Shown in pieces: positions 10,246-31,269 of a DNA stretch of 32,000 bases (within the stretch, counting starts at the first letter, position 1; each line of letters begins with the position of its first letter). Both the position numbers and the translations under genes were made by a program. The notes under the pieces were generated by a model. It was given only the letters and a program-made list of their open reading frames with translations. It ran no database searches and was not told the origin of the DNA. Source of the DNA: Acaryochloris marina MBIC11017 (GTDB lineage Bacteria; Cyanobacteriota; Cyanobacteriia; Thermosynechococcales; Thermosynechococcaceae); assembly GCF_000018105.1 (NCBI RefSeq), contig NC_009927.1, positions 150,001-182,000 on the forward strand. Reading direction: 5' to 3'.

Positions 10246-10548
10246 CTAGAATTCTTCGTTTTCGGCTTTAATCTGGCGAGTGGTGGGGATGGTGCGCCAA
10301 TCAGCTAGCCAGTGGTCATCACCATAGAAAGTTTTGACCCAACTCTCTAGGCGAGGCTGGATCAGACCTGGCTTAGATTTGACGGGTGCATAGACTTCAA
10401 ATAAATCGCCACCCTCACGTACACCGGGGTATTTTTCAATCTGCATCTCGACTGCAATCACTTCAGGATGAAGGGGATCAGTGACTTGAGAGTCAACAAG
10501 CTGAAGCAGTTCAGTGACGGTGGTGGGTGCTTCGGTTAAAGTTGTCAT
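10246..10548 (-). CDS. small acidic protein, paralogue of 30588-30899
   Basis: 100 aa with about 17 D/E against 9 K/R. It is roughly three-quarters identical to the 103-aa ORF at 30588-30899, which is on the opposite strand. The same conserved leader precedes it. Confidence 0.7.
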   Translation of the reverse strand: MTTLTEAPTTVTELLQLVDSQVTDPLHPEVIAVEMQIEKYPGVREGGDLFEVYAPVKSKPGLIQPRLESWVKTFYGDDHWLADWRTIPTTRQIKAENEEF

Positions 10549-10662
10549 AGTTATTGCCTTTGATTGGGTTTTAACTAGGGCATCCGAGAACTTACCAGGC
10601 GACCGGATGCCTTTGTTTGTATGTAATAACTATATCACACTGAGTGTGTAAAATTACACACT
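10549..10662 (-). promoter_or_regulatory. cassette-1 control region: palindromic operators, -10 TATAGT, conserved hairpin leader
   Basis: On the minus strand the order is operators, -10 box, leader, start codon. The operators are AGTGTGTA-aaat-TACACACT (10643-10662) and the overlapping CACACT-g-AGTGTG (10636-10648). TATAGT lies at 10629-10634. The leader is ACAAACAAAGGCATCCG...CGGATGCCCTAGTTAAAACCCAATCAAAGGCAATAACTATG, with the stem at 10579-10586 and 10604-10611. Confidence 0.6.
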
Positions 10663-10763
10663 AAATAAAACTATAGACTTATTGCGTGTGTATAAAAAGT
10701 ACACTATGATGCAAGTTGTCTAGCACTAATGCATCATAGATGTGTGGTGTTGGAATAGTTGCT

Positions 10764-10937
10764 ATGACGAATAAATCACGAATGACGCGAATTAACATCA
10801 CTGTCCCGGAAGATTTACTTGAAGAGTTCAAAGAATACTGTGACTCGCAAGTAAGATCTGTTTCTTCTCAAATTCAGTTTTTTATGAAACAGGCAGTTGA
10901 GTCTAATCAGAAACAGAAAGGGAATGAAAGTTCTTGA
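10764..10937 (+). CDS. ribbon-helix-helix (CopG/Arc-type) regulator, cassette 1
   Basis: 57 aa from ATG 10764. Beta-strand RINITVP, then helices EDLLEEFKEYC and SVSSQIQFFMKQAV. It is divergent from the cassette-1 promoter. Confidence 0.7.
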   Translation: MTNKSRMTRINITVPEDLLEEFKEYCDSQVRSVSSQIQFFMKQAVESNQKQKGNESS

Positions 10938-10985
10938 TGCTGCTGAATAATCAATAAAAGCAACTATTACCAAGTGGTGAGATAA

Positions 10986-11231
10986 ATGACCAACAGCAAC
11001 CCCCAACGATGGACCGATGATCGGCTTGATGCCCTTGCAGCTTCTACTCAAAGCTTACTTGCTGCAACCCAGGCTAATACTAAAGCTATCGGGGAAAATT
11101 CTGAACTCATGCAGAAAGTGATTGAAGGTCAGCTAGCAATGCAGACTTTACATGGTCAATTGGCAGAGCAGACTTTGCAGCTCAAGCGGGCTGTTGACTA
11201 CTTGCTGAGCAAAGATGGAGGGCAATCATGA
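10986..11231 (+). CDS. hypothetical coiled-coil protein (81 aa)
   Basis: Heptad-like and Q/L-rich (DDRLDALAASTQSLL...). It lies downstream of the RHH gene. Confidence 0.5.
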   Translation: MTNSNPQRWTDDRLDALAASTQSLLAATQANTKAIGENSELMQKVIEGQLAMQTLHGQLAEQTLQLKRAVDYLLSKDGGQS

Positions 11232-11234
11232 TCA

Positions 11235-11453
11235 ATGGAATCTGAAGAGATTATCATCCGCTACTATCGCAATCCTATTCCTGTAATGGTCGATCCTGGT
11301 CAGAATCATCCACGACATGAGCATGATTTATTACTGGGTTGGATTTGTCAGGGTAAGGATAGAAGCCCCGTACTCAAGAACTTCCCTAATGCTGAAATAG
11401 TTGCTAAGGCTAAGTCTGAGGCTAAGCCTTATCTAACCCTAGTGAAGCAATAG
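11235..11453 (+). CDS. hypothetical protein (72 aa)
   Basis: The ATG is 3 nt after the preceding stop. The 3' end overlaps the convergent ORF 11422-11844 by 32 nt. Confidence 0.4.
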   Translation: MESEEIIIRYYRNPIPVMVDPGQNHPRHEHDLLLGWICQGKDRSPVLKNFPNAEIVAKAKSEAKPYLTLVKQ

Positions 11454-14584: not shown

Positions 14585-15743
14585 ATGACTGTACTTCAAC
14601 TCAAGCTTCAGACGCTACGAAAAGAACTCAATGCCGCTCACCTAGAGCGCAAGTCTGTGATTGATGGCTTGCTGGCTACATTGTTGGCGAACCAAAACGC
14701 CTTGCTGTATGGGCCACCGGGAACGGGTAAAAGTTTGATACTTAGAGAGATTTGCTCTGCGATCGCAGATGCGAATTTCTTCCAGCGCTTGCTTCACAAA
14801 GCCATGTCTCCTGATGAAGTCTTAGGCCAAATCAGCCTTAAAGCATTGAAACAAGACATCATGAAGCGCAACACCAGCGGCAGACTTCAAGAGGCTCACT
14901 TGGCTTTTCTAGATGAAGTCTTTAGAGGCAATGGGGTATTGCTCAATAGCTTGCTGGAGCTGATGAACGAGCGCACCTACGACAACCCAGACAAACAGAA
15001 AAGCCCCCTTCGCTCGATAGTCGGTGCAACGAACTCGATTGACTCAGGGAGCGACCTAGAAGCGTTTGCCGACCGCTTTATTTACAGACCCTGGATTTTC
15101 GATCTAAAAAACCCCCAGCTCTACTAAGAAGCTGTTGGGTTGGACTATCAAAGGCAATCGGCCCCAGGTGAGTCAAGGTCTGATTTCATTAGCCGAACTC
15201 GATCAGATGTGCGCTGAGATTCAACAGGTGAAATTCACCGATGCCATGGTGGATGCTTTTACTGAGATTATCCATGCTCTGATCCGGGATGGCTTTGTGA
15301 TTAGTGCCCGCCGCAGAGTAAAGTTGCTGCAGCTTGTTCAGTGTTACGCCTACATCCAAGGGGACGAGCAAGTATATCTAGAGCATTTGCATGAGTTATT
15401 ACCTCAGTGCTGCTGGAAATCAAAGATTGAGGAAATTAGAGAAATCAAGAAGCTGATTGAAACCTCAGCACCCATCGCGAAAAAGAAATTAGCGGATATC
15501 GCTAAAGCTGCTCAGGGTGAAGTCTCAAGGCTGGAAGAGCAACTGAATAATCAAATGTTAGACCATACCCATCATGTCAATGCCGCTGATTTTGCCCGGA
15601 CGCAACTTACCAACTTATCCAGCAGCTTAGACAAGGTTCAGGCCGACCTATGCCGCAATGGAGCCAGCCAGAAAGCCAAAGCTGAGACCGAACTAAAAGC
15701 CCAATCAGACCGAATCAATGAGCTAGTTGAAGGCTTGTATTAA
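14585..15743 (+). pseudogene. RavA/MoxR-like AAA+ ATPase, reading frame broken by a +1 shift in an A6C5 run
   Basis: ORF 14585-15127 has Walker A GPPGTGKS, Walker B AFLDEVFRG, LLELMNER and EAFADRF. ORF 15135-15743, one frame over, continues with FVISARRRVKLLQLVQCYAYIQG...CCW, which is RavA-like (SDRRWKK...LLKDCLW). The second frame is open from 15108. The homopolymer AAAAAACCCCC lies at 15106-15116. Confidence 0.8.
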
Positions 15744-20421: not shown

Positions 20422-20664
20422 TCTCATCCACATCACAGTCAGTGATTTCTATGGTTGCTGTTTCAAAAAAAAATCGCGCAGATCCCTAGGAAAGTTGTCA
20501 GAGTAAAAATGTTATTTTGCTTGAATTCTTACAAAAATTAATCTTTTCCTGGTTAAATTTTTGTGGTTACGGAGACAATACTCCTATTACTAGGTCTAGG
20601 TAGGGTAGACACTGAATAATGGTTGTGAAGCAATACCAGAATCGAGATCGCAACCCCACCCACC

Positions 20665-21159
20665 ATGATCACCTTCACCTGGACAACCGCAGATCATATC
20701 CTCCAACTTCGCCACCAAGTTTTGCGGCCAGGATTACCCATCGCTGAGGTCATTTTCCCAGAAGACCAAGACCAGGAAACCCGTCATTATGGAGCATTCA
20801 GCCAGCAGGGAGAAGTTATCTGCTGCGTCACCCTCATTCCCTCAACCTGGCATGGTGAACTTGCGTGGCGACTCAGGGCAATGGCGACAGCTCCAGGCTG
20901 GAGAAATCAGGGGATTGGCACAGGACTGATCCGATACTTGCTTGAGGATTTACAAGAGTCCAATCAAGCAAGGCCGATTTGGTCTAACGCTAGGGTCAGC
21001 TCTGCAAGGTTTTACCGGGAGCTAGGTTGGCGGGAAGTCTCCGAGCAGTTTGAGAATGGCAATGCGGGTCTATCGGTGACGATGCTAAAAGAAGAGAAGA
21101 CGCTCGCCGCAGGGCATGTTCCGGGGGCTGGTGTTGTGTCGAAGATTAGCTTGAGATGA
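20665..21159 (+). CDS. GNAT-family N-acetyltransferase
   Basis: 164 aa. Acetyl-CoA motif A LRAMATAPGWRNQGIGTGLIRYL, then ARFYRELGW. The last roughly 23 codons run into repeat element copy A, so the native C-terminus may have been replaced. Confidence 0.8.
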   Translation: MITFTWTTADHILQLRHQVLRPGLPIAEVIFPEDQDQETRHYGAFSQQGEVICCVTLIPSTWHGELAWRLRAMATAPGWRNQGIGTGLIRYLLEDLQESNQARPIWSNARVSSARFYRELGWREVSEQFENGNAGLSVTMLKEEKTLAAGHVPGAGVVSKISLR

Positions 21160-21334
21160 TGCGGAAGTGGGCACCCCCGAAACGAGCAAGAGTGTAGCGT
21201 ACCTCAGATCGGCAAGGTCGCCATCGCAAAGCCATGGCTTTTCTCTGCTCCCTGCCTTTACTTGGGGATGCTGCATTGTCGGAATTTTGCGGGATGGGTG
21301 CGGGTTTTGGGATTGGTATCAGGAGTGAGATCGC
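21091..21334 (-). repeat. conserved non-coding element of about 245 nt, copy A
   Basis: Aligns over its whole length with 29314-29674 once the MITE is removed. Long near-identical blocks include GATCGGCAAGGTCGC, CAAAGCCATGGCTTT and TTGGGGATGCTGCATT. All three plus-strand frames carry stops in the conserved core. Confidence 0.8.
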
Positions 21335-21493
21335 AAAGCAATCCGTGACCTTTCTTCCTGGGTCAATTAATCACTCATCTGCTAATTTTCAAAATCCATA
21401 CAGACTTTATATTGTCTAGGCAATACAGAAACCACAGAGAATATGAAAATTTGGGTATGAGTTCCATCGGCTAATTTCACGTACCAGTCCCGA

Positions 21494-21907
21494 TCAGAGG
21501 TTGCTCGGTTGAACTGCTCGAATACGAATCTCTCGGATCCAAACCTTCGTGAATTGTCCTAACCCTTTCCCCGGACTCATAAGCTGTTCAACTCCCTCAC
21601 CGAGTTGGGTGATAATACCTTGCCGCCATCGGTCCCAATCAACTTGAGCAGGGAAATCTAGGTCTTCACAATATTCTGTCCAGCTCGATTGCTGGAACTC
21701 TGAAGCAAGCACAGAGGCTTCTATCTCTCTGACCTGGATTAGATGGATATCAATCAGCTCTTGGATAAATTGAGGATGCACGACCGGAGGCTCGTCACCA
21801 TCGACCACCGGAAACTCATAAAAGAGCTGTAATTCCTCCACAGAATTCTTTTTGGCTAATCTTAGGAGTTCTAATTGTTGATGAGTCAAGGATGGAATCT
21901 GAGTCAT
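21494..21907 (-). CDS. hypothetical acidic protein (137 aa)
   Basis: ATGA overlap with the upstream 97-aa gene. No motif recognised. Confidence 0.55.
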   Translation of the reverse strand: MTQIPSLTHQQLELLRLAKKNSVEELQLFYEFPVVDGDEPPVVHPQFIQELIDIHLIQVREIEASVLASEFQQSSWTEYCEDLDFPAQVDWDRWRQGIITQLGEGVEQLMSPGKGLGQFTKVWIREIRIRAVQPSNL

Positions 21908-22197
21908 GATTGACCGTTTTGCAACAGTTGCTCAATTCGATCCAAGCGTGTATTAACTCCTTCAAATTGAGAATTCATATCTTTGCGTAATAGCTCAATC
22001 TCAATCCTGTTATCAGCAATTTTGTCAATCAATCTGCTTTCGCTGGTAGGGACAATAGCGGCAACGCTGGTATTGATCAGGAAAAACAGACCACCGATCA
22101 GAAGACCAATCACAGCTAAAACAGGAAGCAAGTCTTTGGATAAGTCCACCAAAGAAGAGAAGCGGGTTGGGGTAGTGTCCTGGTTGTCTGAGGTCAT
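21904..22197 (-). CDS. small membrane-anchored coiled-coil protein (97 aa)
   Basis: TM helix LLPVLAVIGLLIGGLFFLI followed by a coiled coil ending NTRLDRIEQLL. An operator plus TATAAT block lies upstream. Confidence 0.6.
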   Translation of the reverse strand: MTSDNQDTTPTRFSSLVDLSKDLLPVLAVIGLLIGGLFFLINTSVAAIVPTSESRLIDKIADNRIEIELLRKDMNSQFEGVNTRLDRIEQLLQNGQS

Positions 22198-22332
22198 CTC
22201 AATCCACTGAAATTACATATCAACGGAATTTTAAGTTGTCTAGTGTCTAAATTATAACATAAATCGAACGTATACATTCATTTATAATGATAATTACTTC
22301 GGCAAGAGCCACTGAAAAAGACGATGTTTAAG
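22198..22332 (-). promoter_or_regulatory. outward-facing operator/promoter block, inverted copy
   Basis: 22251-22280 is the reverse complement of 22634-22663, matching at 28 of 30 positions: TGAATGTATACGTTCGATT-(T/A)ATG(T/C)-TATAAT. Confidence 0.6.
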
Positions 22333-22554
22333 TTATTCCTTATCATTCTTGGGCCAATCAATAGAATCATCAGCAATTGCAGCGTTAACAATCGCTGATC
22401 GTAGCCATTGTGGCCTATTGTTCATCTGCCGAACGATTTTATCCAGACTGGCGGGTAAGCGAACACTCAAAGGCGTGTCTGCTAATAGCTCATTAGAGTC
22501 TGGAGCTGTTTTGCCAATGGTCAAGTTCTTCAAGCTATTTTTATTGACTGCCAT
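22333..22554 (-). CDS. ribbon-helix-helix regulator, cassette 2
   Basis: 73 aa. Beta-strand LSVRLP, then helices ASLDKIVRQM and QWLRSAIVNAAI. Confidence 0.65.
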   Translation of the reverse strand: MAVNKNSLKNLTIGKTAPDSNELLADTPLSVRLPASLDKIVRQMNNRPQWLRSAIVNAAIADDSIDWPKNDKE

Positions 22555-22744
22555 GGATAGAGCTAACTAATCAACGACTTCAAGAATAGCACAGCAAATC
22601 GAATGTATACATATATAATAAAATCCTCTTGGTTGAATGTATACGTTCGATTAATGCTATAATACTTTCATGAAAACAAAGGCACCGCCCCCGACTACCA
22701 ATCTGAAGCGATGCCCGAGTTAAAAACCACAAAGGAAGTTAACT
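22555..22744 (+). promoter_or_regulatory. cassette-2 control region: GAATGTATAC palindromes, TATAAT, conserved hairpin leader
   Basis: GAATGTATACATAT at 22601-22614, GAATGTATACGTTC at 22635-22648 and TATAAT at 22658-22663. The leader is AAAACAAAGGCACCGC...GCGATGCCCGAGTTAAAAACCACAAAGGAAGTTAACTATG, with the stem at 22681-22688 and 22708-22715. Confidence 0.6.
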
Positions 22745-22957
22745 ATGTTCAATTTAACTGATGTTGAAACCCCCATCCTTCGCTTTGGTACTGAGTTTAT
22801 CGATCCAAACCTATTGGTTGCAGTCGAAGTCTACGAGGACACCCTAGGCGACGGTGAAGCCAGTCAGCCCGCAACAGGGACTAAAGCCCACACTGGCTAC
22901 ATAGATGGCGTTTGCGTGGCCTACCGCTCAGACGGCACCCCGGTAAGCATTGAATAA
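22745..22957 (+). CDS. small strongly acidic protein (70 aa)
   Basis: About 12 D/E against 3 K/R. It occupies the same cassette position as the 100/103-aa paralogues. The segment DPNLLVAVEVYED is weakly similar to DPLHPEVIAVEMQIE. Confidence 0.6.
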   Translation: MFNLTDVETPILRFGTEFIDPNLLVAVEVYEDTLGDGEASQPATGTKAHTGYIDGVCVAYRSDGTPVSIE

Positions 22958-22964
22958 CGTCTTT

Positions 22965-22980
22965 GGGGCACCTCTGCCCC
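22965..22980 (+). terminator. GC hairpin GGGGCACCTCTGCCCC after the cassette-2 acidic-protein gene
   Basis: This 16-mer is identical to the minus-strand reading of 10221-10236. Confidence 0.45.
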
Positions 22981-23013
22981 TACTCATTTCAGGAAAATTC
23001 AGAGGACTAAGAC

Positions 23014-23358
23014 ATGGAAATTATTCAATCCACACCTCAAACCACTATCGCTAAGCTAAACGACCGTTTTCGCCAAGGCGATCACTCCCTCGGTAAAATC
23101 TGCACGACCCAAGCCGTTAACAGTCTTCCCTCAGCCGATCAGCAAGAACTCTTTCGCCTACTCCGCACCTTCAATGACTTCACTCCAGGTAATGACCCTT
23201 ATGGAGAGCATGACTTTGGAAGTATTGAATTTCAGGGTGAGACCTACTTTTTTAAGATCGACTACTACGACAAATCATTGAGATACGGCACTGAAGACCC
23301 CAGTGATCCAGCAAAGACGACCCGAGTTTTAACCCTGATGCATTCAAGGGAGTACTAG
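23014..23358 (+). CDS. DUF3768-like protein
   Basis: 114 aa. FTPGNDPYGEHDFGSIEF...FFKIDYYD...DPSDPAKTTRVLTLMHSREY matches the DUF3768 signature as I recall it (NDP.GEHDFG, KIDYYD, VLT.M...EY). Confidence 0.7.
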   Translation: MEIIQSTPQTTIAKLNDRFRQGDHSLGKICTTQAVNSLPSADQQELFRLLRTFNDFTPGNDPYGEHDFGSIEFQGETYFFKIDYYDKSLRYGTEDPSDPAKTTRVLTLMHSREY

Positions 23359-23373
23359 AGAATCCTGCAGCCT

Positions 23374-23397
23374 ATGCCCTGTCTTAAATCAGGGCAT
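23374..23397 (+). terminator. hairpin ATGCCCTG-tcttaaat-CAGGGCAT followed by TTTCC
   Basis: 8-bp stem, 16 nt after the DUF3768-like stop. The U-tract is short. Confidence 0.4.
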
Positions 23398-23442
23398 TTC
23401 CAAACCAATATTGGTACAATGATATTAACTAGGGAAAAAGAA

Positions 23443-23697
23443 ATGACAACGACATCCCCGGATAGATTAGATCGCATTGAATCTCTTCTCAGTACTCTTG
23501 GAGAGGACATGCAAACTGTGAAAGCTGATATCTCCACAGTCAAAGAAGATATTAGTGAACTAAAAGAGCAAACCACCAAAACTAACGAAAAGGTGGAAAC
23601 TTATCAGAAAGCTAGTCAACAGGTTGTGAATCTTGCTTTTGGTCTTATTGTCACTGCTGCTCTTGCGATTATTCTCCCAGTGGTCACAAATCACTAG
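23443..23697 (+). CDS. small coiled-coil protein with C-terminal TM helix (84 aa)
   Basis: Start placed at ATG 23443 ([16 protein letters not shown]). Coiled coil followed by the TM helix [21 protein letters not shown]. Confidence 0.55.
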
Positions 23698-23765
23698 TCT
23701 TTCACCGAAAATTTTAGGGTCTGAAGCCCCGTACTTCAGGACGGTATTGTCTTTGTTTCTCAAAG

Positions 23766-23789
23766 GTACTAGCCGACACAAACTAGTAC
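23766..23789 (+). promoter_or_regulatory. left-end hairpin of the tnpB element (GTACTAG-N10-CTAGTAC)
   Basis: 7-bp inverted repeat immediately upstream of the tnpB ATG, where IS200/IS605-type left-end hairpins sit. Confidence 0.4.
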
Positions 23790-24053
23790 AATTGAACTAT
23801 GAAGCTGCGTTATCGCTATCGAGTTTATCCAACACCAGTTCAAGCCAATCGACTGGCCCAGATGTTTGGTTGCACTCGCGTAGTCTGGAACGATGCTCTT
23901 ACCTTTTGCCAACAACAGTATGCACAAGGAGGTAAATACCCTGGCTCTACAGCCCTAATGAAACAGTGTATTACCAAAGCCAAGCAAACCGAAGAACGAA
24001 GCTGGTTGTCGTCAGTATCTGTCGTTCCATTACAGCAATCTGTCAGAGACTTA

Positions 24054-24951
24054 GAGGCTGTTTGAGAAGTTTTAGTGCTCCTGCGCTAGCCTTCGAACCA
24101 TGAGTCGAATCATCGCCACATAAACAAGCGCTTCAGCCGTCCTAGTCAGCACCTCATAATCTTTATTAAGACGTCGAGACCACAACAACCATCCAAACGT
24201 CCGCTCTACAATCCATCGTTTGGGAATAACCTGAAACCCCGCTAGATTATCTGAGCGTTTGACTACTTCCAAGACATATTGAAAACGGTCCATTACCCAC
24301 TTCATCAAAGCTTGTCCTTGATAGCCTGCATCAGCCCATATCCGAACTAGACGGGACAAACTCGCACCTTGGCGTTGAGCTTTCCAAAACAGTATTTTGG
24401 CCCCTCGTTGGTCAGAGATATTTGCAGCGGTGACCATCACCATCAGAACCAGCCCCAAAGTATCAACGAGCACATGACGTTTACGACCTTTGACCATTTT
24501 CCCACCATCAAACCCAATCAAGTGACACCGAGGATTGCCGACTTTGACCGATTGAGCATCGCAGATAGCGGCACTGGGACTGGGATGACGGTCTTCACTC
24601 ACCCGCACTTGCATGCGTAGATGTTCATTGATTTGACTCCAAGTCCCATCATCGCGCCACCTTCGAAAATAGCTATAGACCGTTGACCAACAGGGAAAAT
24701 CATGAGGTAGTTGTCTCCACTGACAACCTGTAACCACGAGATAAAAAATGGCATTGAGAACACTGAGCATATCAGTGGTGCGAGGTCTACCTCCAGGTTT
24801 AGCAGCAGGAATCAAAGGCTCAAGTAATTCCCATTGCAGGGTGGTGAGGTCGCTATCATATGCTGTAGGCATTGCTCTCTAGGTCCTGTCCAGTGTTTGT
24901 GTATTGACAGATTAGTACCTTGAGAGCTTTACTCACTTCTCAAACAGCCTC
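24054..24951 (-). mobile_element. IS5-family insertion sequence (898 bp)
   Basis: Perfect 17-bp terminal inverted repeats: GAGGCTGTTTGAGAAGT at 24054-24070 and its complement at 24935-24951. The 3-bp duplication TTA lies at 24051-24053 and 24952-24954. Confidence 0.92.
24072..24872 (-). CDS. IS5-family DDE transposase (266 aa)
   Basis: N-terminal LTTLQWELLEPLIP...GRPR...NAIFYLVVTGCQWRQLP, the IS4/IS5 N-terminal domain. DDE core DAQSVKV...WADAGYQG...VERTFGWL. Confidence 0.9.
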   Translation of the reverse strand: MPTAYDSDLTTLQWELLEPLIPAAKPGGRPRTTDMLSVLNAIFYLVVTGCQWRQLPHDFPCWSTVYSYFRRWRDDGTWSQINEHLRMQVRVSEDRHPSPSAAICDAQSVKVGNPRCHLIGFDGGKMVKGRKRHVLVDTLGLVLMVMVTAANISDQRGAKILFWKAQRQGASLSRLVRIWADAGYQGQALMKWVMDRFQYVLEVVKRSDNLAGFQVIPKRWIVERTFGWLLWSRRLNKDYEVLTRTAEALVYVAMIRLMVRRLAQEH

Positions 24952-25914
24952 TTAGACGTTGCTTTCCGCAACTTCTTCAGCTCTGTATCAGGTAAACGCA
25001 AAGGTCCAAAAGTGCGGATGCCCCGGTTTAAGAAACGGCATTCAACCCAGACAGCTCGGTTTACCCTAAGGGGGTTTTCAGTGGGCACGAAGCTGTATCT
25101 AGCTAAGATTGGCTCCATTAAAGTTCAGTGGTCTAGGGCATTACCCTCAGAGCCATCCTCAGTAACCATTATCAAAGACCCATCAGGCCGATACTTCGCT
25201 AGCTTTGTTGTCGAAAAAGAGCCAGAGTTATTGCTCTGGAATGATACATCCATCGGCATTGATTTAGGGATAACCACCTTTGCCACCCTCAGCACAGGCC
25301 AGAAAATAGAAGCTCCTAAGCCATTAAAGCGATATCTCAAAAAACTAGCCCGCTTACAAAAGACCTTGAGCCGCTGTGAAAAAGGGTCAAATCGCAGGCA
25401 GGCTGCAAAACTCAAGGTCGCACAACTCCATAATCGGATTAAAGATATTCGAACCGATTTTCTGCACAAACTCAGCACTCAGTTGATCATCGAGAACCAA
25501 GAGATCAATCTAGAAGACTTGAATGTGTCAGGGATGCTCAAGAATCGCAGATTGTCTAAAGCGATCAGTGATTTAGGATGGCGACAATTTAGAACCATGC
25601 TGGAAGCTAAAGCCATCATGTATGGTCGTGATGTCAACATCATCAGTTGCTGGGAACCCACCAGCCAAACCTGCTCATGCTGTGGGCATCGAGAAGGACG
25701 TAAACAGTTGGGGATTAGAGAGTGGCAATGTCTCAATTGTGGCGTTTTCCACGATAGGGATATTAATGCTGCATTGAATATCAAAGCCGCCGGGGGGCAC
25801 TCGGAGGCGATAAACGGATGTCGGAGAGAGTGTAAGTCTGAAGTCAATTCAGCCGTTCTCAGTGATGCGTCAACTCGTCTAGTAGATAAGCAGTTAGAAC
25901 TGTTTGCTAGCTAG

Positions 25915-25950
25915 GGAATCCTCGTGCCTTTAGGCCGAGGAGGATGTCAA
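25915..25950 (+). ncRNA. terminal stem-loop of the probable TnpB omega-RNA (reRNA) / right end
   Basis: GGGAATCCTCGTGCC-TTTA-GGCCGAGGAGGATGTCAA lies directly after the tnpB stop. The stem pairs 25920-25928 with 25933-25940 and has one bulged U. This matches the conserved right-end hairpin seen downstream of cyanobacterial tnpB genes. The scaffold probably starts inside the ORF 3' end. Confidence 0.5.
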
Positions 25951-26149
25951 AGCTCTATTTTAGAGAGACAGTAAGCAATCAAATCTTTACCCAATCACCC
26001 TATAACATCAGGGAACAATCCAGGATTCGAAATGATCAAGATGGCATTTTTAGGAATGGTGGCGATCAACTGATCACGGAGCTTACCCATGATTCGGCAA
26101 CGGGAGCCTATGCAGGGATATTTAATGTTGGCCTTGAACTGAGATAAAG

Positions 26150-26457
26150 TCTCATCTGGTAAAAGGCCAGGGTTATCCTGCCTGACATTGAGAGAATGGT
26201 TCCCGGATGAAGTAAAGTGCATCTCGTCCGTCATGAACCCCTCCCTACCCTCCGGGGTTGAGGAAGGGGCTTGATTGGTCTCAGCCGATCACTAAGTCGT
26301 GACTAGACCATGAGCTGAATACAGGTACGTAGGTCCGGGCGTTTCCCAAACTCGGACACTCTGCAAGCCTTCTGAGAAAAGGCGTAGCGTAACGGCTAGA
26401 AATCCTGGATTCAGTGGTCTTAGGGACATACAACTCATTAGAGGATTATCTCCAACA
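26150..26457 (+). ncRNA. candidate IsrB omega-RNA (HEARO-like) region; 5' boundary uncertain
   Basis: It sits directly 5' of the IsrB-like ORF on the same strand and has no credible ORF. Nested hairpins lie at 26277-26309, 26332-26357 and 26367-26383. The call rests on position and structure only. Confidence 0.45.
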
Positions 26458-27621
26458 ATGATTTTAAGAGTGCCAGTCATATCACCAGAGGGTCAGCCTC
26501 TAATGCCCACCAAACCTAGCCGTGCCCGTCGCATGGTCAGAGATGGTAAAGCTGTCGGCAAATGGAATGATGCTGGAGTCTATTACATCCAGCTCACAGC
26601 AGATCCATCAGACACCCAGACGCAACCCATTCATTTAGGTTGTGATCCTGGCAAGTCCTATTCAGGTATCGCTGTTCAATCTGCTCATTTCACCCTATAT
26701 ACCGCTCACCTTGTTCTACCTTTCCAGCGGATTAAAGAACGCTTGGGAGCTGCCGTCATCAAGAACGGCAAAGTTATCAAAAATGTTCGGGGTAGGGCAT
26801 TACAACGTCGAGTCAGGCGAGGACGGCGCATCAACCGCAAGGTGCCGTTTCACTTAAGAGCACATCGTCAGAAGCGATTTAACAATCGTCGCCAACCCAA
26901 GCTTCCTCCATCAATTAAAGCCTCAAGGCAGATGGAGCTTCGAGTGATCAAGGAACTGTCAAAGATTTTCCCCATCACTTCGATTGTCTATGAAGTCGTC
27001 AAGGCTGATGTAGACAGAACATCAGGTCGCAAAGGTGCTAAATCAGGGAAAGGCTTCTCCCCCGTTATGACTGCACAATATTGGGCGATGGAACAACTAG
27101 AAGCCATTGCTCCAGTCATAAAACGTCATGGCTGGCAAAAGGATGGCAACGGCACTAGCCAGATCCGTAAGCACTTGGGCCTAATCAAATGTAAAGACAA
27201 GAAAGCTCAGGCACCTGAGGCCCATGCTGTCGATGGCATTGCCTTGGCTGCAAGTCAGTTTACTCGATATCAAGCTAGTCAATCTGACTCCATGGATTGG
27301 GTTGGTTCTATAGATGTTACGCCTTGTCAATTCAGGGTGATTACCCGTCCTGCCTATTTCAGGAGAGCGCTGCACTTTGATAATCCCGGCAAAGGGGGGA
27401 CTCATAAGCGAAAGGGCGGTACTGTTACCCCCTGGGTCTTTCGCTCTGGAGATTTAGTGGTGGGCGAAAAAGCGGGCAAGGTATTCCGTGGATGGGTTGG
27501 CGGCTATACAAAAAAAGCTAAATCCGTATCCCTCTATGACCATAACTGGCGACGAATCGGGAAGTTTGTTGTTTCTAAATGCACACTACTTCGGAGGTCA
27601 AATAAGTTATGCGTAGCCTAG
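26458..27621 (+). CDS. isrB: IsrB-type protein (IscB homologue lacking the HNH domain)
   Basis: 387 aa. The order is PLMP motif (EGQPLMPTKPSRARRMVRDGKA), RuvC-I LGCDPGKSYSGIAV, bridge helix RRVRRGRRINRK..RFNNRRQPK, RuvC-II SIVYEVVKADVD and RuvC-III EAHAVDGIALA. There is no CxxC/HNH segment between RuvC-II and RuvC-III. Confidence 0.8.
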   Translation: MILRVPVISPEGQPLMPTKPSRARRMVRDGKAVGKWNDAGVYYIQLTADPSDTQTQPIHLGCDPGKSYSGIAVQSAHFTLYTAHLVLPFQRIKERLGAAVIKNGKVIKNVRGRALQRRVRRGRRINRKVPFHLRAHRQKRFNNRRQPKLPPSIKASRQMELRVIKELSKIFPITSIVYEVVKADVDRTSGRKGAKSGKGFSPVMTAQYWAMEQLEAIAPVIKRHGWQKDGNGTSQIRKHLGLIKCKDKKAQAPEAHAVDGIALAASQFTRYQASQSDSMDWVGSIDVTPCQFRVITRPAYFRRALHFDNPGKGGTHKRKGGTVTPWVFRSGDLVVGEKAGKVFRGWVGGYTKKAKSVSLYDHNWRRIGKFVVSKCTLLRRSNKLCVA

Positions 27622-27654
27622 AAGATTGCCAGCCTTCGTCTGGCCGCTATCCCC

Positions 27655-27681
27655 CTCCGTCTTGCTTCGCTGAAGACGGAG
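27655..27681 (+). terminator. 9-bp hairpin CTCCGTCTT-N9-AAGACGGAG downstream of isrB
   Basis: Perfect stem. A U-rich stretch (GGTTTTGTT) lies about 10 nt further on. A second hairpin, GGCCTCAC...GTGAGGCC, is at 27748-27777. Either could be a terminator or an element right end. Confidence 0.4.
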
Positions 27682-27862
27682 ATCCACGCGGTTTTGTTGG
27701 GTCGATGCTGAACACAATTTACGCCAAAGCATCGGCAAGTAACTTTTGGCCTCACTCGGCCAGCGCTGGGTGAGGCCTATCGCCAGTTTCAAATCTGAAT
27801 CGCTCGTGAATTTTCTGATACCGACACATTCTCTTTAATCTCAATAACAGAAGGTTTTTATC

Positions 27863-28474
27863 ATGGCTAACAACCTGCTCATCATTGACCCGGCAGAACT
27901 TCAGCCAGTCAACCACCTCAGGCCTCGACAAGCCTTGCTAGCAGCTTTAAGGACAACGCACAAGGCAGGCTGGCACCTGGCAATGATTTCAGATCAATCC
28001 AAAATCGCAAAAGGAGAGCGCAGCTTAACCGAAGTTCTAGATTGCCATCAAGCCGCAATGAATCGATATGACCAATTAATTGGCGTAAGTATGTTCACGA
28101 CAAACCAGGGCAGTGAAATGGTTGTAACACGGTGTCAAATCCCTGATATCGGCATATTCAATACTCAATCGACCTTAACTCAGAAGATTGCAAAGTCCTT
28201 TGATGCAACAATCACAGGCGATTGGTTTTTACCGCCAAACCCCGGCTTGCTAATGGCTTGCATGGCGTTACACAGTTCCACATTTGAGACGACTGTAATG
28301 GTCGGCACTGGCAGATTTGATGCCTTGGCTGTTCGCAACGGTCTGTTGTTAATGCATCCTGAAACCTTCGAACAGAAAGGGGTCACTGTGGGGCACTCCG
28401 CTCATTCAGTACAACAAACAACCCTGCAGATAAGGGACATGTTAGGGCAGAACTATTCTCTAACCGAAAACTAG
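27863..28474 (+). CDS. hypothetical protein, possibly a degenerate HAD-IIIA-like fold
   Basis: 203 aa. LLIIDPAE...AMISDQSKIAKGE...PPNPGLL...MVGTGRFDALA loosely follows the GmhB/PNKP phosphatase motif order. The second Asp of the DxD motif is missing. Confidence 0.4.
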   Translation: MANNLLIIDPAELQPVNHLRPRQALLAALRTTHKAGWHLAMISDQSKIAKGERSLTEVLDCHQAAMNRYDQLIGVSMFTTNQGSEMVVTRCQIPDIGIFNTQSTLTQKIAKSFDATITGDWFLPPNPGLLMACMALHSSTFETTVMVGTGRFDALAVRNGLLLMHPETFEQKGVTVGHSAHSVQQTTLQIRDMLGQNYSLTEN

Positions 28475-28493
28475 TCATCGTAATAGCTCTATC

Positions 28494-28540
28494 GCCCTGG
28501 TTGTTACCCCAGAGTTTTAAGCCAGGGCTTCATTCAATTT
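28494..28540 (+). terminator. stem GCCCTGG/CCAGGGC followed by a T-rich tract
   Basis: The stem pairs 28494-28500 with 28522-28528 and has a large loop. TTCATTCAATTTTTT follows. Confidence 0.4.
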
Positions 28541-28689
28541 TTTAAACCTCAGTAATCTTTTCACCAGCAATTTTGTTGAGGATATATATTGATAGGAATT
28601 GGGAGTGGGCTATTTATTCTAGCTGTAAAATCGCTTTCCTTGGGTATTTTCCTAAGAAAAAAGTCAATAGAAAACTAAATATTCTATTT

Positions 28690-29169
28690 CTATCCCTTTG
28701 GTTTTCCTAAGTCAGTTTGTTTAATTGGAGGCTTAGTAGCTGATGAAACAAAAAAATAACCTGTAACAGCGGTAACAATTGGCGTTAAGAATGTATAAAG
28801 CCTATTAGATGTTGAATCCACCATGGCATTTGCCTTTTCATTCAATTGAATTTCTTGTTGATGAACTAAACTGATTGTTCCATCTTCTTCTAGCTGAGGT
28901 TTGAGAGAAGATATTTCATTAGCAAACTTCCTAGAAGCCTCAAAATGTGACCATGCTAACATTCCTAGAAGACACCAAAGACTAAGAGCTAATATTCCTG
29001 ATCCCCATAATTTCACATTCGATCTAAATTCTTCAGGTTTATAAAAGTTCTCCATCCAGTTTCTATAAAATTCCAAAGAATTTTCCAAAATATTTTGATC
29101 TTCTAAAGTTGAAGCATCGTCAGTATTTATAGAATTTTTTTTATGGCCGCTTAAATCTTCTTGACTCAT
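28690..29169 (-). CDS. hypothetical membrane protein (159 aa), AT-rich gene
   Basis: Two hydrophobic segments (ILALSLWCLLGMLAW and LTPIVTAVTGYFFV). Low GC relative to the flanks. Confidence 0.5.
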   Translation of the reverse strand: MSQEDLSGHKKNSINTDDASTLEDQNILENSLEFYRNWMENFYKPEEFRSNVKLWGSGILALSLWCLLGMLAWSHFEASRKFANEISSLKPQLEEDGTISLVHQQEIQLNEKANAMVDSTSNRLYTFLTPIVTAVTGYFFVSSATKPPIKQTDLGKPKG

Positions 29170-29313
29170 GTATTCTTACCTGAATTGTAAATAATTAAAT
29201 AAGTGTAATTACCTGAATTGACTTGGGTCACACTATCAGAAATCAACCAAGGCTGACAAGAATTAGTGTTTGATTATTTACAATTTGGACTTATCTCTAA
29301 TCAACTACCTGGT

Positions 29314-29674
29314 AAGAGAAGAAAAAAACGCTCGCCACTGGGCAGGTTCCGGGGGCTTGTGTTGGATCGAGGATTAGTCTGAGATGATGCGAGAGTTGCC
29401 CCCGAAACGAACAAGAGTGTAGCGTACTTCAGATCGGCAAGGTCGCTCTCACAAAGCCATGGCTTTGCTCCACTCACTGCCTTTATTTGGGGATGCTGCA
29501 TTAGACCTCTTGCATAATTCCACTACCGATATGGAAAAGGACTAAAAATCCAAGCCAGATCGCGGTATTTTTTGCGTAACTAGCACATCATGAAACGAAT
29601 ATTGCAAGAGGCCTATTATCGGAATCTTGCTGGATGGGTAAGAGCTTTTGGGATGCTATCAGGGATGCGATCGC
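29314..29674 (-). repeat. conserved non-coding element, copy B (interrupted by a MITE)
   Basis: Same orientation as copy A. After removing 29503-29617 it is 246 nt, against 244 nt for copy A. Confidence 0.8.
29503..29614. mobile_element. 112-bp MITE-like insertion
   Basis: Terminal inverted repeats AGACCTCTTGCA and TGCAAGAGGCCT (11 of 12 positions). Flanked by ATT at 29500-29502 and 29615-29617. Copy A is uninterrupted at the corresponding site (GCATTGTCGG). Confidence 0.7.
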
Positions 29675-29699: not shown

Positions 29700-30119
29700 T
29701 CAGGATGCACTTAATAGATAACCTAAACCTAGCCCTAAACCAGCGGAGGCATACAGCAGAAAACCTCGGACAACATAATTTAGAGTCCCTTCCAAGTTTT
29801 GTGCAGCGAGGTTTAATGTCATCCAAAAACATAAAACCATAAACCATCCAATAAAGGGGTTAAAACCAATCGAACTAGCTGTATAAATCGCAAGCATCGT
29901 CAGAAAACTACCGAAACAAAATAAACCCACTCTTAACTTTTTCAACCAAACGACATCACTTAAAGTTGGTAGTGAAATACACCCAACCAATGCAGCAATT
30001 CCTGTTAACTCCACTATTCCAAACCATAAAGGTGCCAGGTGATAGCCTAATACCACGCCACCAATGGAGTTAACCAATAGCCATACAATGATGCTGCTCA
30101 TAGTCGATAATTTGAGCAT
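29700..30119 (-). CDS. polytopic membrane protein (139 aa, about 4 TM)
   Basis: ATG 30119 overlaps the RHH stop (TGATG). It is hydrophobic throughout. Confidence 0.6.
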   Translation of the reverse strand: MLKLSTMSSIIVWLLVNSIGGVVLGYHLAPLWFGIVELTGIAALVGCISLPTLSDVVWLKKLRVGLFCFGSFLTMLAIYTASSIGFNPFIGWFMVLCFWMTLNLAAQNLEGTLNYVVRGFLLYASAGLGLGLGYLLSAS

Positions 30120-30337
30120 CAAGACTTAGTAAGCAGCCCTTCATTTTCAGCCCCGATCCTCGCCTGTTGTCTCAACCAAGCTGTAAGCTCTCCTTTGCCT
30201 GGATACTTGGTGGCAAGGGCTTCATATACTTCTTCTTCCAACCGAATACTCAGCGACTTAGCAAGCTTACCAGTCGTATTGTCTGCCCTTGGTAATGGTT
30301 CCAGGTGGTCAAAAGTAGGGTTAGGATTTCTTCCCAT
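30119..30337 (-). CDS. ribbon-helix-helix regulator, cassette 3
   Basis: 72 aa from ATG 30337. Beta-strand LSIRLE, then helices EEVYEALATKY and ELTAWLRQQARIG. The TTG-started 93-aa version would begin inside the operator. Confidence 0.6.
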   Translation of the reverse strand: MGRNPNPTFDHLEPLPRADNTTGKLAKSLSIRLEEEVYEALATKYPGKGELTAWLRQQARIGAENEGLLTKS

Positions 30338-30587
30338 ATCTGAATACACATAGTTACGAGACAAGCCTAGCATAAGCATCAGATATATGCTTGCATTCAA
30401 GCCTATATATCTATGGAAACTTAATGCTCAAAGTATACAGAAATAAGATATAAACAAGTGTAAACAATCTCTTTATATGCTTGAATGCAAGCATATAAGT
30501 GTTATAATGCTTACATGCAAACAAAGGCACCGCGCTTCCGACCAAAGACTCGCGATGCCCTAGTTAAAACCCAACAAAGGATTAACT
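30338..30587 (+). promoter_or_regulatory. cassette-3 control region: 10-N4-10 palindromes, TATAAT, conserved hairpin leader
   Basis: TATATGCTTG-catt-CAAGCCTATA at 30384-30407 and TATATGCTTG-aatg-CAAGCATATA at 30474-30497. TATAAT at 30503-30508. The leader is CAAACAAAGGCACCGCG...CGCGATGCCCTAGTTAAAACCCAACAAAGGATTAACTATG, with the stem at 30526-30534 and 30551-30559. Confidence 0.6.
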
Positions 30588-30966: not shown

Positions 30967-31269
30967 ATGAATTCATCAGACACAACTCAAATGCCCCAAT
31001 GGCTGGATGTCTTAGCAAAGCTTGCAACGATAGTCATCGCTATTGTCGCTCTGATTTCAGCTCTAGCTAGTGTCAATTTCTTCGTTGTTAGATCTGTTGT
31101 TGCAGAACAAATTACACCTCAATTCCAGCAAATAGATCAGCGATTTCAACAGGTCGATCAACGACTTCAGCAAATAGATCAGCGGTTCCAGCAGGTCGAT
31201 CAACGATTTCAGCAGATGGATCAACGACTAGAGCGGATTGAAATCAAGCTAGACAAAATCACGAATTAA
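30967..31269 (+). CDS. membrane-anchored coiled-coil protein with heptad tandem repeats (100 aa)
   Basis: Start at ATG 30967, behind AAGGGAGAG. TM helix LAKLATIVIAIVALISALASVNFFVV, then QQIDQRF/QQVDQRL heptads ending RLERIEIKLDKI. Confidence 0.65.
   Translation: MNSSDTTQMPQWLDVLAKLATIVIAIVALISALASVNFFVVRSVVAEQITPQFQQIDQRFQQVDQRLQQIDQRFQQVDQRFQQMDQRLERIEIKLDKITN
31126..31230 (+). repeat. five tandem 21-bp units (42-bp super-period), coding
   Basis: The units are CAGCAAATAGATCAGCGATTT, CAACAGGTCGATCAACGACTT, CAGCAAATAGATCAGCGGTTC, CAGCAGGTCGATCAACGATTT and CAGCAGATGGATCAACGACTA. Confidence 0.9.

Follow-up and report, generated by a model that had tools for sequence, protein, structure and literature searches.

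Introduction

Multimer-resolution sites of the cer/psi type are about 240 bp long and have an embedded small RNA. Frpo and ssi are promoters and priming signals that work on single-stranded DNA (ssDNA) in the leading regions of conjugative plasmids (Masai and Arai 1997; PMC11541004). Small RNAs (sRNAs) may also be derived from the 3′ untranslated region (3′UTR) of a transcript, an example being a cyanobacterial 3′-end-derived sRNA (PMC8136909). The element described here comes from pREB2, a plasmid of the cyanobacterium Acaryochloris marina MBIC11017. The window, meaning the whole stretch of DNA that was analyzed, is 32,000 nt of this plasmid (contig NC_009927.1, positions 150,001 to 182,000), and it was compared, as pREB2, with other plasmids. 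It holds two copies of the element in the same orientation: copy A at ~21086–21334, and copy B at 29313–29502 plus 29618–29674. Acaryochloris can carry up to nine large MOBF plasmids, with intensive gene exchange; to our knowledge, nothing is known of cis-acting or RNA elements on them.

What is this element? Judging by its sequence, it most likely acts as a single-stranded nucleic acid with the sequence of the minus strand, RNA being favored. Our tentative reading, which we consider quite possible rather than probable, is that it forms the structured 3′-terminal RNA domain (a terminator or 3′UTR, or an sRNA derived from it) of the regulator operon of an establishment cassette, and that it is also a recombination hotspot.

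How does it compare with the systems already described? Like 3′UTR- and terminator-associated RNAs, the element comes immediately after the final stop codon of an operon and is on the strand of that operon; it has a conserved fold that ends U-rich and an unpaired loop that is conserved, and it lacks a promoter consensus. Unlike 3′UTR-derived sRNAs, it is multi-copy, plasmid-borne and modular; unlike a simple terminator hairpin, its closing stem encloses a 100-nt three-way junction. With Frpo and ssi it shares a length of ~250 nt, a leading-region-like context beside anti-restriction/establishment genes, and a structure on the predicted transferred strand, 3′ of an early operon on that strand. 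Unlike them, it has no long imperfect hairpin, no −35/−10 pair and no sequence similarity, and its folding energy as DNA is not above background. Like BOX, ERIC, REP/BIME and Correia-type repeats, it is multi-copy, intergenic at gene 3′ ends, capable of forming stem-loops and a substrate for recombination, and, as in BOX/ERIC/REP-type repeats, it is built of modules (R, M and L) that also occur separately. It differs from these repeats in being much longer and better conserved, in having neither terminal inverted repeats nor target duplications, and in being found on plasmids of one genus (chromosomes lay outside the search) in a strict position beside one operon type. Finally, comparison with cer/psi draws on the fact that both are plasmid-borne non-coding units of ~240 bp, here with recombination breakpoints at or in the element; unlike cer/psi, the element has no recognized Xer-type core, although no dedicated search was made for one, and several direct copies are kept on one plasmid without deletion.

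A dispersed family of non-coding elements

Copies A and B had originally been taken for a two-copy feature. The pair of direct repeats is real, in that the repeat finder and blastn both recover it (blastn E-value ~1e-57, far beyond chance). Both programs align 21097–21277 with 29325–29502, at 81–90% identity, and 21275–21334 with 29615–29674, and the common orientation is also apparent on reading the sequence. Once a miniature inverted-repeat transposable element (MITE) is removed from copy B, the copies are identical at 196 of 234 positions (83.8%), with 4 gap columns. The near-identical block had first been given in reverse order; its plus-strand sequence runs GAGTGTAGCGTAC...CAGATCGGCAAGGTCGC. 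The idea of a two-copy feature was wrong, A and B being members of a dispersed family. A blastn search of PLSDB places the element at 24 sites, with 76–89% identity. These are spread over 13 plasmids, every one of which comes from Acaryochloris (strains S15, MBIC10699 and ‘Moss Beach’). A profile search of the fetched loci finds ~25 full or partial copies, including some in a metagenome-assembled genome (MAG) and in strain NIES-2412. A pattern scan of a genome collection, in which the genome of the window seems to be absent or masked, gave matches only in two contigs of one Acaryochloris MAG, and two metagenome pattern scans gave zero matches to the element. No Rfam 15 family matches anywhere in the window at gathering thresholds; at E ≤ 10, the region 20900–21600 has only a chance miRNA match, which lies outside the element. 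The family is genus-specific and previously undescribed, with copies known from Acaryochloris plasmids. It marks the outer edge of establishment (leading-region-like) cassettes, and may serve as a marker for tracing the shuffling of cassettes between co-resident plasmids.

The modules are named, and ordered R-M-L, as read on the minus strand. R runs from a highly iterated palindrome 1 (HIP1) site, GCGATCGC, to a GATAAT-like box; M consists of ATGCAGCATCCCCAAGTAAAGGCAGGGAGC... with a 5-bp hairpin; and L is a domain of ~125 nt with a long helix and a T-rich end. Copy A is full length (21086–21334, minus strand), as determined by blastn and nhmmer, with boundaries common to 11 full copies. Its R module (21279–21334) extends in the alignments from a HIP1-like start, GAGATCGC/GCGATCGC, to a −10-like GACAAT/GATAAT just before an ‘ATG’; its M module (21212–21278), the block most widely retained in the family, contains the hairpin, PM, at 21227–21242; and its L domain (21086–21211) is delimited by RNAalifold, pair counts and single-sequence folds. 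In copy B, also on the minus strand, L and M occupy 29313–29502, and R, at 29618–29674, ends at the HIP1 site GCGATCGC. Partial copies consist of L alone, L+M or R+M, with recurrent breakpoints near positions 57–68, 110 and 135–143 of the model; R is absent from the copies on pMB03, pREC3, pMB02 and pREC2. In the MAG, an operon homologous to c1_81-c1_72 runs straight into an R+M fragment. The possibility that R is a relic of the 3′ end of c1_72 was rejected: the similarity is weak, and in the MAG the open reading frame (ORF) simply reads into R.

The ends of the element are discrete in copies with unrelated flanks, with an A-rich left end and HIP1 at the right end. According to the repeat finder, these ends have no inverted-repeat arms, and the differing flanks show no duplications. 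An origin of the element from a MITE or insertion sequence (IS) is not supported: it lacks terminal inverted repeats and target duplications, both of which are present in the MITE inside copy B. This MITE (29503–29614, 112 nt) lies between R and M, inside the −10-like GATAAT and in the first of the recurrent breakpoint zones (model positions 57–68). It had been predicted to interrupt copy B, and it does, with terminal inverted repeats AGACCTCTTGCA.../...TGCAAGAGGCCT and a 3-bp target duplication (ATT at 29500–29502 and 29615–29617). Its ends match those of an IS on pMB08 (fetched locus L016, 21074–21121 and 22498–22567). It derives by internal deletion from the IS of ‘Moss Beach’ plasmids that encodes transposase WP_235111890, and it retains 48 and 70 nt of the two IS ends.

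Could the element encode a protein? All three plus-strand frames are stopped, in GATTAGCTTGAGATGA, and the one that encodes the final ~20 residues of the neighboring GNAT protein has a ratio of nonsynonymous to synonymous variation (pN/pS) of 0.6. The minus-strand ORFs at 21085–21276 and 29301–29501 exist as first reported, which raises the possibility of a gene for a small protein of 63–66 aa (MQHPQVKAGS...), translationally coupled to the upstream gene by a TAATG overlap. This ORF is open in A, in B and in several relatives, it is an annotated coding sequence in pMB03 and pREC3, the stop codon of the upstream gene overlaps its start codon in truncated copies, and the only indel between A and B is 3 nt long. 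Such a gene is nonetheless highly unlikely. At least eight copies interrupt the ORF, with in-frame stops in copies from pMB06, pMB04, S15p15, pREC4, pMB02 and pMB05 and frameshifts in copies from pREC4, pMB08 and pMB03. Its pN/pS of 0.72 resembles that of the remaining five frames (0.59–1.35). Across the family, variable columns fall 36/25/37 on its three codon positions, with no third-position excess; such an excess is missing also between A and B, as originally stated, although the substitutions there number 13/8/11 by codon position rather than 10/7/7. The ORF consensus has no homolog among 5.8 billion protein clusters, and neither ORF has a Pfam or NCBIfam domain match. The element is non-coding, in agreement with the original prediction. 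RefSeq ‘hypothetical proteins’ over the element differ in strand and frame from record to record, and the family explains such spurious calls in several of them. GenBank numbering (GNAT ABW31952, p137 ABW31954) implies that the original MBIC11017 record annotates an ORF, ABW31953, inside the element at ~21160–21420.

Folding of the minus strand

Constraint on the element can be gauged against p137, a gene of the adjacent operon. The number of synonymous substitutions per site (dS) of p137 between loci is 0.28, 1.54 and 1.07, and the respective blastn identities of the element are 88%, 75–80% and 83%. By this comparison of sequences, the element is far more conserved than the synonymous sites of its neighbor. 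Gene conversion may contribute to the similarity between loci.

RNAalifold, run on 17 copies, gives a fold that consists of the hairpin PM and an L domain with a closing stem (P1), a long helix (P2) and a small hairpin (P3). In copy A, P1 pairs 21196–21205 with 21096–21104, P3 lies at 21105–21116, and a pyrimidine/U-rich tail occupies 21086–21095; an alignment of the family has a run of at least four Ts after P1 in 12 of 17 copies. The long-range helix, P2, had been predicted for both copies and is found there, with plus-strand arms at 21118–21127/21174–21183 in A and 29346–29355/29399–29408 in B, as is the palindrome of PM (21227–21242 and 29452–29467). The single 3-nt indel between A and B likewise falls in the loop of the long helix, as claimed.

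Is this fold maintained across the family? Pair tests used 20 copies, 467 cells and 500 shuffles. The cells pair in 94.0% of cases, compared with 91.6 ± 0.4 in shuffles (0/500); pairs changed on both sides number 7, compared with 2.5 ± 1.0 (1/500), and additional pair types 26, compared with 21.7 (0/500). In slid controls, pairing never rises above 64%. For example, pair 114–121 of PM is G-C in 10 copies, A-U in 5 and G·U in 1. P1 and P2 together are present in 14 of 17 independent single-sequence minimum-free-energy folds, and the divergent pMB02/S15 copy keeps P2 with other bases, even though its loop cannot be aligned.

The fold is also specific to one strand, by wobble counts, by pairing within helices and by folding energy alike. 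Two G·U wobbles in A and B had been taken as a hint of a minus-strand RNA, and the asymmetry recurs across the family: the minus strand has 77 G·U cells versus 8 A·C cells (9 columns versus 1 in a smaller set). Canonical pairing per helix is 87–97% on the minus strand and 69–93% on the plus strand. Folded as minus-strand RNA, the L domain has a mean z-score of −1.35, compared with −0.60 for plus-strand RNA and −0.73 for minus-strand DNA. A strand-specific, conserved fold on the minus strand is thus moderately supported.

Position behind regulator operons

Each of the 11 full copies directly follows a small regulator operon encoded on its own strand, at a distance of 3–170 nt from the stop codon. 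These operons are of several types. First, ribbon-helix-helix (RHH) gene RHH73 is followed by p97 and p137 at copy A, on S15 p10 and on pREC1; the p137 end of such an operon is found in pREC4, the MAG and NIES-2412. Second, RHH93 is followed by TM140 at copy B and on pMB06. Third, an RHH93-like gene stands alone upstream of the element on pMB04, S15 p15 and pMB08. In the window, the operon upstream of copy A (21494–22554, minus strand) comprises RHH73 (22333–22554), p97 (21904–22197) and p137 (21494–21907), and that upstream of copy B (29700–30400, minus strand) comprises RHH93 (30119–30400) and TM140 (29700–30122), with its stop codon 26 nt from the element. A consensus scan found no terminator-like site and no consensus promoter between regulator operon and element.

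The regulator operon is divergent from an early operon that encodes, depending on the locus, an ArdC-like ssDNA-binding protein, DUF3768, DUF6876, KilA-N, RelE/HigA or a sigma factor. In cassette 2 of the window, this early/establishment operon lies at 22745–23697 on the plus strand and contains p70, DUF3768 and p107; its equivalents elsewhere have ArdC-like, DUF6876, KilA-N, RelE/HigA and sigma-70 genes. Early genes of the ArdC/DUF3768 type are typical of conjugative leading regions (PMC11541004). RHH73 is flanked by a 30-nt inverted repeat (22251–22280 and 22634–22663; repeat finder, 93% complementary), and both arms contain a near-palindrome (TGAATGTATACGTTCGA) as well as a TATAAT-like box. 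One of the arms is directed toward p97-p137 and copy A, the other toward the p70-DUF3768 early operon. This arrangement suggests that one promoter/operator has been duplicated to drive both operons, with a putative operator role, and hence that the two may be co-regulated.

How might the element function? The regulator operon and the divergent establishment operon would be driven from one promoter/operator region, and transcription of the former would run on into the element, from RHH73-p97-p137 in the case of A and from RHH93-TM140 in the case of B. The transcript would then fold into the short hairpin PM and the three-way-junction L domain (P1, P2 and P3), and would end at the U-rich tract directly past P1. 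The element would thereby form a structured operon 3′ end, acting as a terminator or as a stabilizer of the 3′UTR. It is possible that an sRNA of 120–180 nt is released, presenting the conserved unpaired loop CGCAUCAUCUCAG to a putative target in trans. If the element does act as RNA, it would be the first example in cyanobacteria of a structured regulatory RNA linked to genes for conjugative establishment.

Several observations weigh against this reading. The original proposal of a structured minus-strand element is supported by the retained helices, the compensatory changes, the G·U asymmetry and the recurrent single-sequence folds of the L domain, and fares less well in other respects: as minus-strand RNA, the whole element has a folding energy equal to that of shuffles (z +0.10), and the RNAalifold covariation term is small, at −0.86 kcal/mol. 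The structure was tested on almost the same alignment from which it had been derived, the copies are close relatives, and part of the compensatory cells come from poorly aligned divergent copies. Concerted evolution via gene conversion could imitate purifying selection, although gene conversion alone does not produce compensatory changes or a one-sided G·U bias. A terminator scan calls no canonical terminator; P3 has only 4 bp, and P1 encloses a 100-nt domain. When a complementary target for the conserved loop was searched for within the window, matches were not above chance. There are p137 operons without the element in MBIC11017 and CCMEE 5410, so the element is dispensable for that operon. 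The sole Acaryochloris RNA-seq study located has very few, apparently unstranded, reads on pREB2. Finally, the folded strand is also the predicted transferred strand, and RNA and ssDNA roles are therefore indistinguishable by sequence.

The product of p137 was considered as an RNA- or DNA-binding partner of the element. It has 30 homologs, in Acaryochloris only, and its AlphaFold/AF2 model is confident (predicted local distance difference test score, pLDDT, 84.7), with no fold match in the PDB at E < 0.4. This lack of a fold match, together with the p137 operons that have no element, led to rejection of the idea.

Conjugation and the transferred strand

Each Acaryochloris plasmid has one mobF (PMC9324425). 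A tblastn search with the MobF of pMB08, combined with the element matches, shows that element and mobF share orientation in 10 of 10 plasmids. In five of these (pMB08, S15 p10, pMB04, S15 p15 and pMB06), the element is 13–18 kb from mobF on the oriT/stbA side, beyond a 925-bp gap that is likely to be the origin of transfer (oriT), beyond stbA and beyond the ArdC operon. The element is therefore found in the manner expected of a leading region, with the orientation of mobF, on the oriT side and beside ArdC/DUF3768 operons. Given this orientation, the folded strand is the template of mobF and of the early operons, and, by analogy with F and R388, it is predicted to be the transferred strand (T-strand) and the template of early genes. 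Leading-region genes use the T-strand as template (PMC11541004). It should be considered, though, that the 10 plasmids represent only ~4–5 independent backbones, and that a fixed position behind the regulator operon would equally result in the same orientation as mobF.

The element could thus be an ssDNA signal on the T-strand. The incoming strand would fold into PM, P1, P2 and P3, 3′ of the early operon and the regulator, and would then either prime synthesis of the complementary strand, as ssi does, or bind an ssDNA-binding protein such as the ArdC-like one; the cassette, with its ordinary promoter, would quickly become double-stranded. We regard this as unlikely, but as a genuine contender. 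In its favor are the orientation with respect to mobF in all 10 plasmids, with the folded strand being the T-strand by the F/R388 analogy, and the location just past the ArdC operon in five of them. Moreover, G·T wobbles are tolerated in DNA hairpins, such that the strand asymmetry fits an ssDNA signal too, and cassette 1 of the window, which is inverted, lacks the element. Against it, the DNA fold is weak, with z +0.80 for the whole element and an L-domain mean z that is weaker than for RNA; there is no long imperfect hairpin and no −35/−10 pair as in Frpo; the agreement in orientation is largely inherited synteny; and the positions of oriT and nic are themselves predicted. An RNA 3′ end is also the better explanation for the U/T-rich tail and for the stop codon that directly adjoins the element. 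An Frpo-type ssDNA promoter in particular was rejected on account of the DNA z of +0.80 and the absence of a promoter-like hexamer pair in the element.

A bolder version of this idea is that the folded T-strand DNA behind the establishment cassette is a new leading-region signal of cyanobacterial MOBF plasmids, unrelated to Frpo and ssi in sequence and shape. It would trigger priming or protein loading, such that the cassette is the first to turn double-stranded and expressible, and in established cells this sequence might also serve the regulator operon as its 3′ RNA domain. This is a speculative proposal that we think improbable. If the element did act as T-strand DNA, the concept of ssDNA signals would extend beyond the enterobacterial Frpo.

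Might the element instead be the oriT recognized by the MobF relaxase? The plasmids are of the MOBF type, RHH proteins are typical relaxosome accessory factors and are encoded nearby, there are inverted repeats within the element, and a shared breakpoint, GCATTATTG^G, loosely recalls a nic junction. However, the element is 13–64 kb from mobF, and in pMB08 the 925-bp gap between the mobF operon and stbA is where an oriT is expected. The element occupies up to four places per plasmid, with several direct copies, between which relaxase-mediated recombination would cause deletions. If the element were oriT, the ArdC operon would enter last. An R388-like nic 20-mer with ≤ 3 mismatches was not found in pMB08, which is a weak test. 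The distance to mobF and the copy number rule out an oriT for practical purposes, and we give the idea a very low probability.

Recombination at the element

Comparison of pREB2 with pREC1 reveals 2 differing positions in 21335–23800 and ~12% differences in 20651–21328. The switch falls at the right edge of the element, at 21328–21334, which is a HIP1-like site, and the boundary of the element is a crossover point. The near-identity to the right of the element, combined with ~12% divergence to the left, indicates that a block consisting of GNAT and the element has been replaced by a paralog, and the sequences point to a recent replacement. A paralogous GNAT gene on a 120,693-bp plasmid was considered as a possible conversion donor, but the look-up gave no record. 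With the module boundaries described above, the element coincides with plasmid recombination breakpoints. The many copies of 80–90% identity on co-resident plasmids suggest that it serves as a homology patch, in addition to its putative role as an operon 3′ end; cassettes and cargo genes (GNAT, TPR and parAB) would be exchanged there.

A simpler view is that the element is a dispersed repeat or relic without a function of its own, namely an ancestral intergenic region between convergent GNAT and p137 genes that has been copied along with rearrangements and kept similar by gene conversion. We consider this doubtful, while noting that it accounts for a good deal. The left-hand neighbor is GNAT or a remnant of it in 9 copies, and the right-hand one is a p137-family gene in ~10; many copies are truncated, at different modules; GNAT and the element were replaced as a unit between pREB2 and pREC1; and some p137 operons lack the element. 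It accounts less well for the discrete ends, both of which are common to copies with unrelated flanks, and for the specific position that every full-length copy occupies. Compensatory changes and a one-sided G·U bias go beyond what conversion alone would produce, and P2 persists with altered bases in the divergent pMB02/S15 copy, the loop of which is unalignable.

The original prediction also raised the possibility that A and B are attL/attR-like attachment sites created by insertion of the 8-kb interval between them. The interval has the contents listed at the time: RHH cassette 2, a tnpB gene split by an IS5-family element, and an RRXRR/IsrB-like gene. That two direct copies flank a segment rich in mobile elements speaks for attachment sites. 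The copies are 16% diverged, however, and at least 20 further copies exist in unrelated contexts. No integrase is encoded in or beside 21335–29313. The interval is no insertion: its cassette is a resident one, identical in pREC1, where copy A is the only copy and the sequence then simply diverges. Copy B is part of a cassette of its own, cassette 3, and the arrangement in pMB06 is exactly the same. No relative was seen that has one hybrid copy and lacks precisely 21335–29313. The attachment-site idea is therefore unsupported, and we consider it extremely improbable.

Other features of the interval are as follows. An IS5-family DDE transposase gene at 24072–24872 interrupts tnpB (23799–25914), which has HTH_OrfB_IS605, OrfB_IS605 and Cas12f1-like TNB domains; in pREC1, the same tnpB is intact. 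An RRXRR-domain (IsrB/IscB-like) protein of 387 aa is encoded at 26458–27621, and the window-wide Rfam scan shows no HEARO/omega-RNA family upstream of it.

Other features of the window

The left-hand neighbor of the element varies: in 9 copies it is GNAT or a remnant of that gene, and in others it is parAB or large TPR genes. At copy A it is a convergent GNAT gene (20665–21159, plus strand), glyphosate-N-acetyltransferase-like. As predicted, copy A reaches into this ORF: the GNAT domain extends to about residue 143, and the final ~20 codons of the ORF lie within the L domain of the element. The closest solved structure is glyphosate N-acetyltransferase 2bsw (5.9e-17), which makes the protein GAT/YitI-like, and structure comparison found no match to TacT, AtaT or KacT. 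A type I toxin-antitoxin system, in which the element would provide an antisense RNA against a GNAT toxin, was rejected because the protein is GAT/YitI-like rather than TacT-type.

Cassette 1 is an inverted establishment cassette at 10246–11453, associated with an inverted repeat at 10259–10560/30576–30877; its gene c1_100 is 77% identical to p103, and it holds no copy of the element. Elsewhere in the window, two adjacent ORFs (14585–15127 and 15135–15743) share between them the MoxR-type AAA ATPase of a MoxR-VWA system, the gene of which may be a pseudogene or carry a frameshift. Cassette 3 has in its early operon a 128-aa ORF with 4–5 in-frame 21-nt tandem repeats at 31123–31241, and the heptads that they encode, QQ(I/V)DQRF, suggest a coiled-coil protein.

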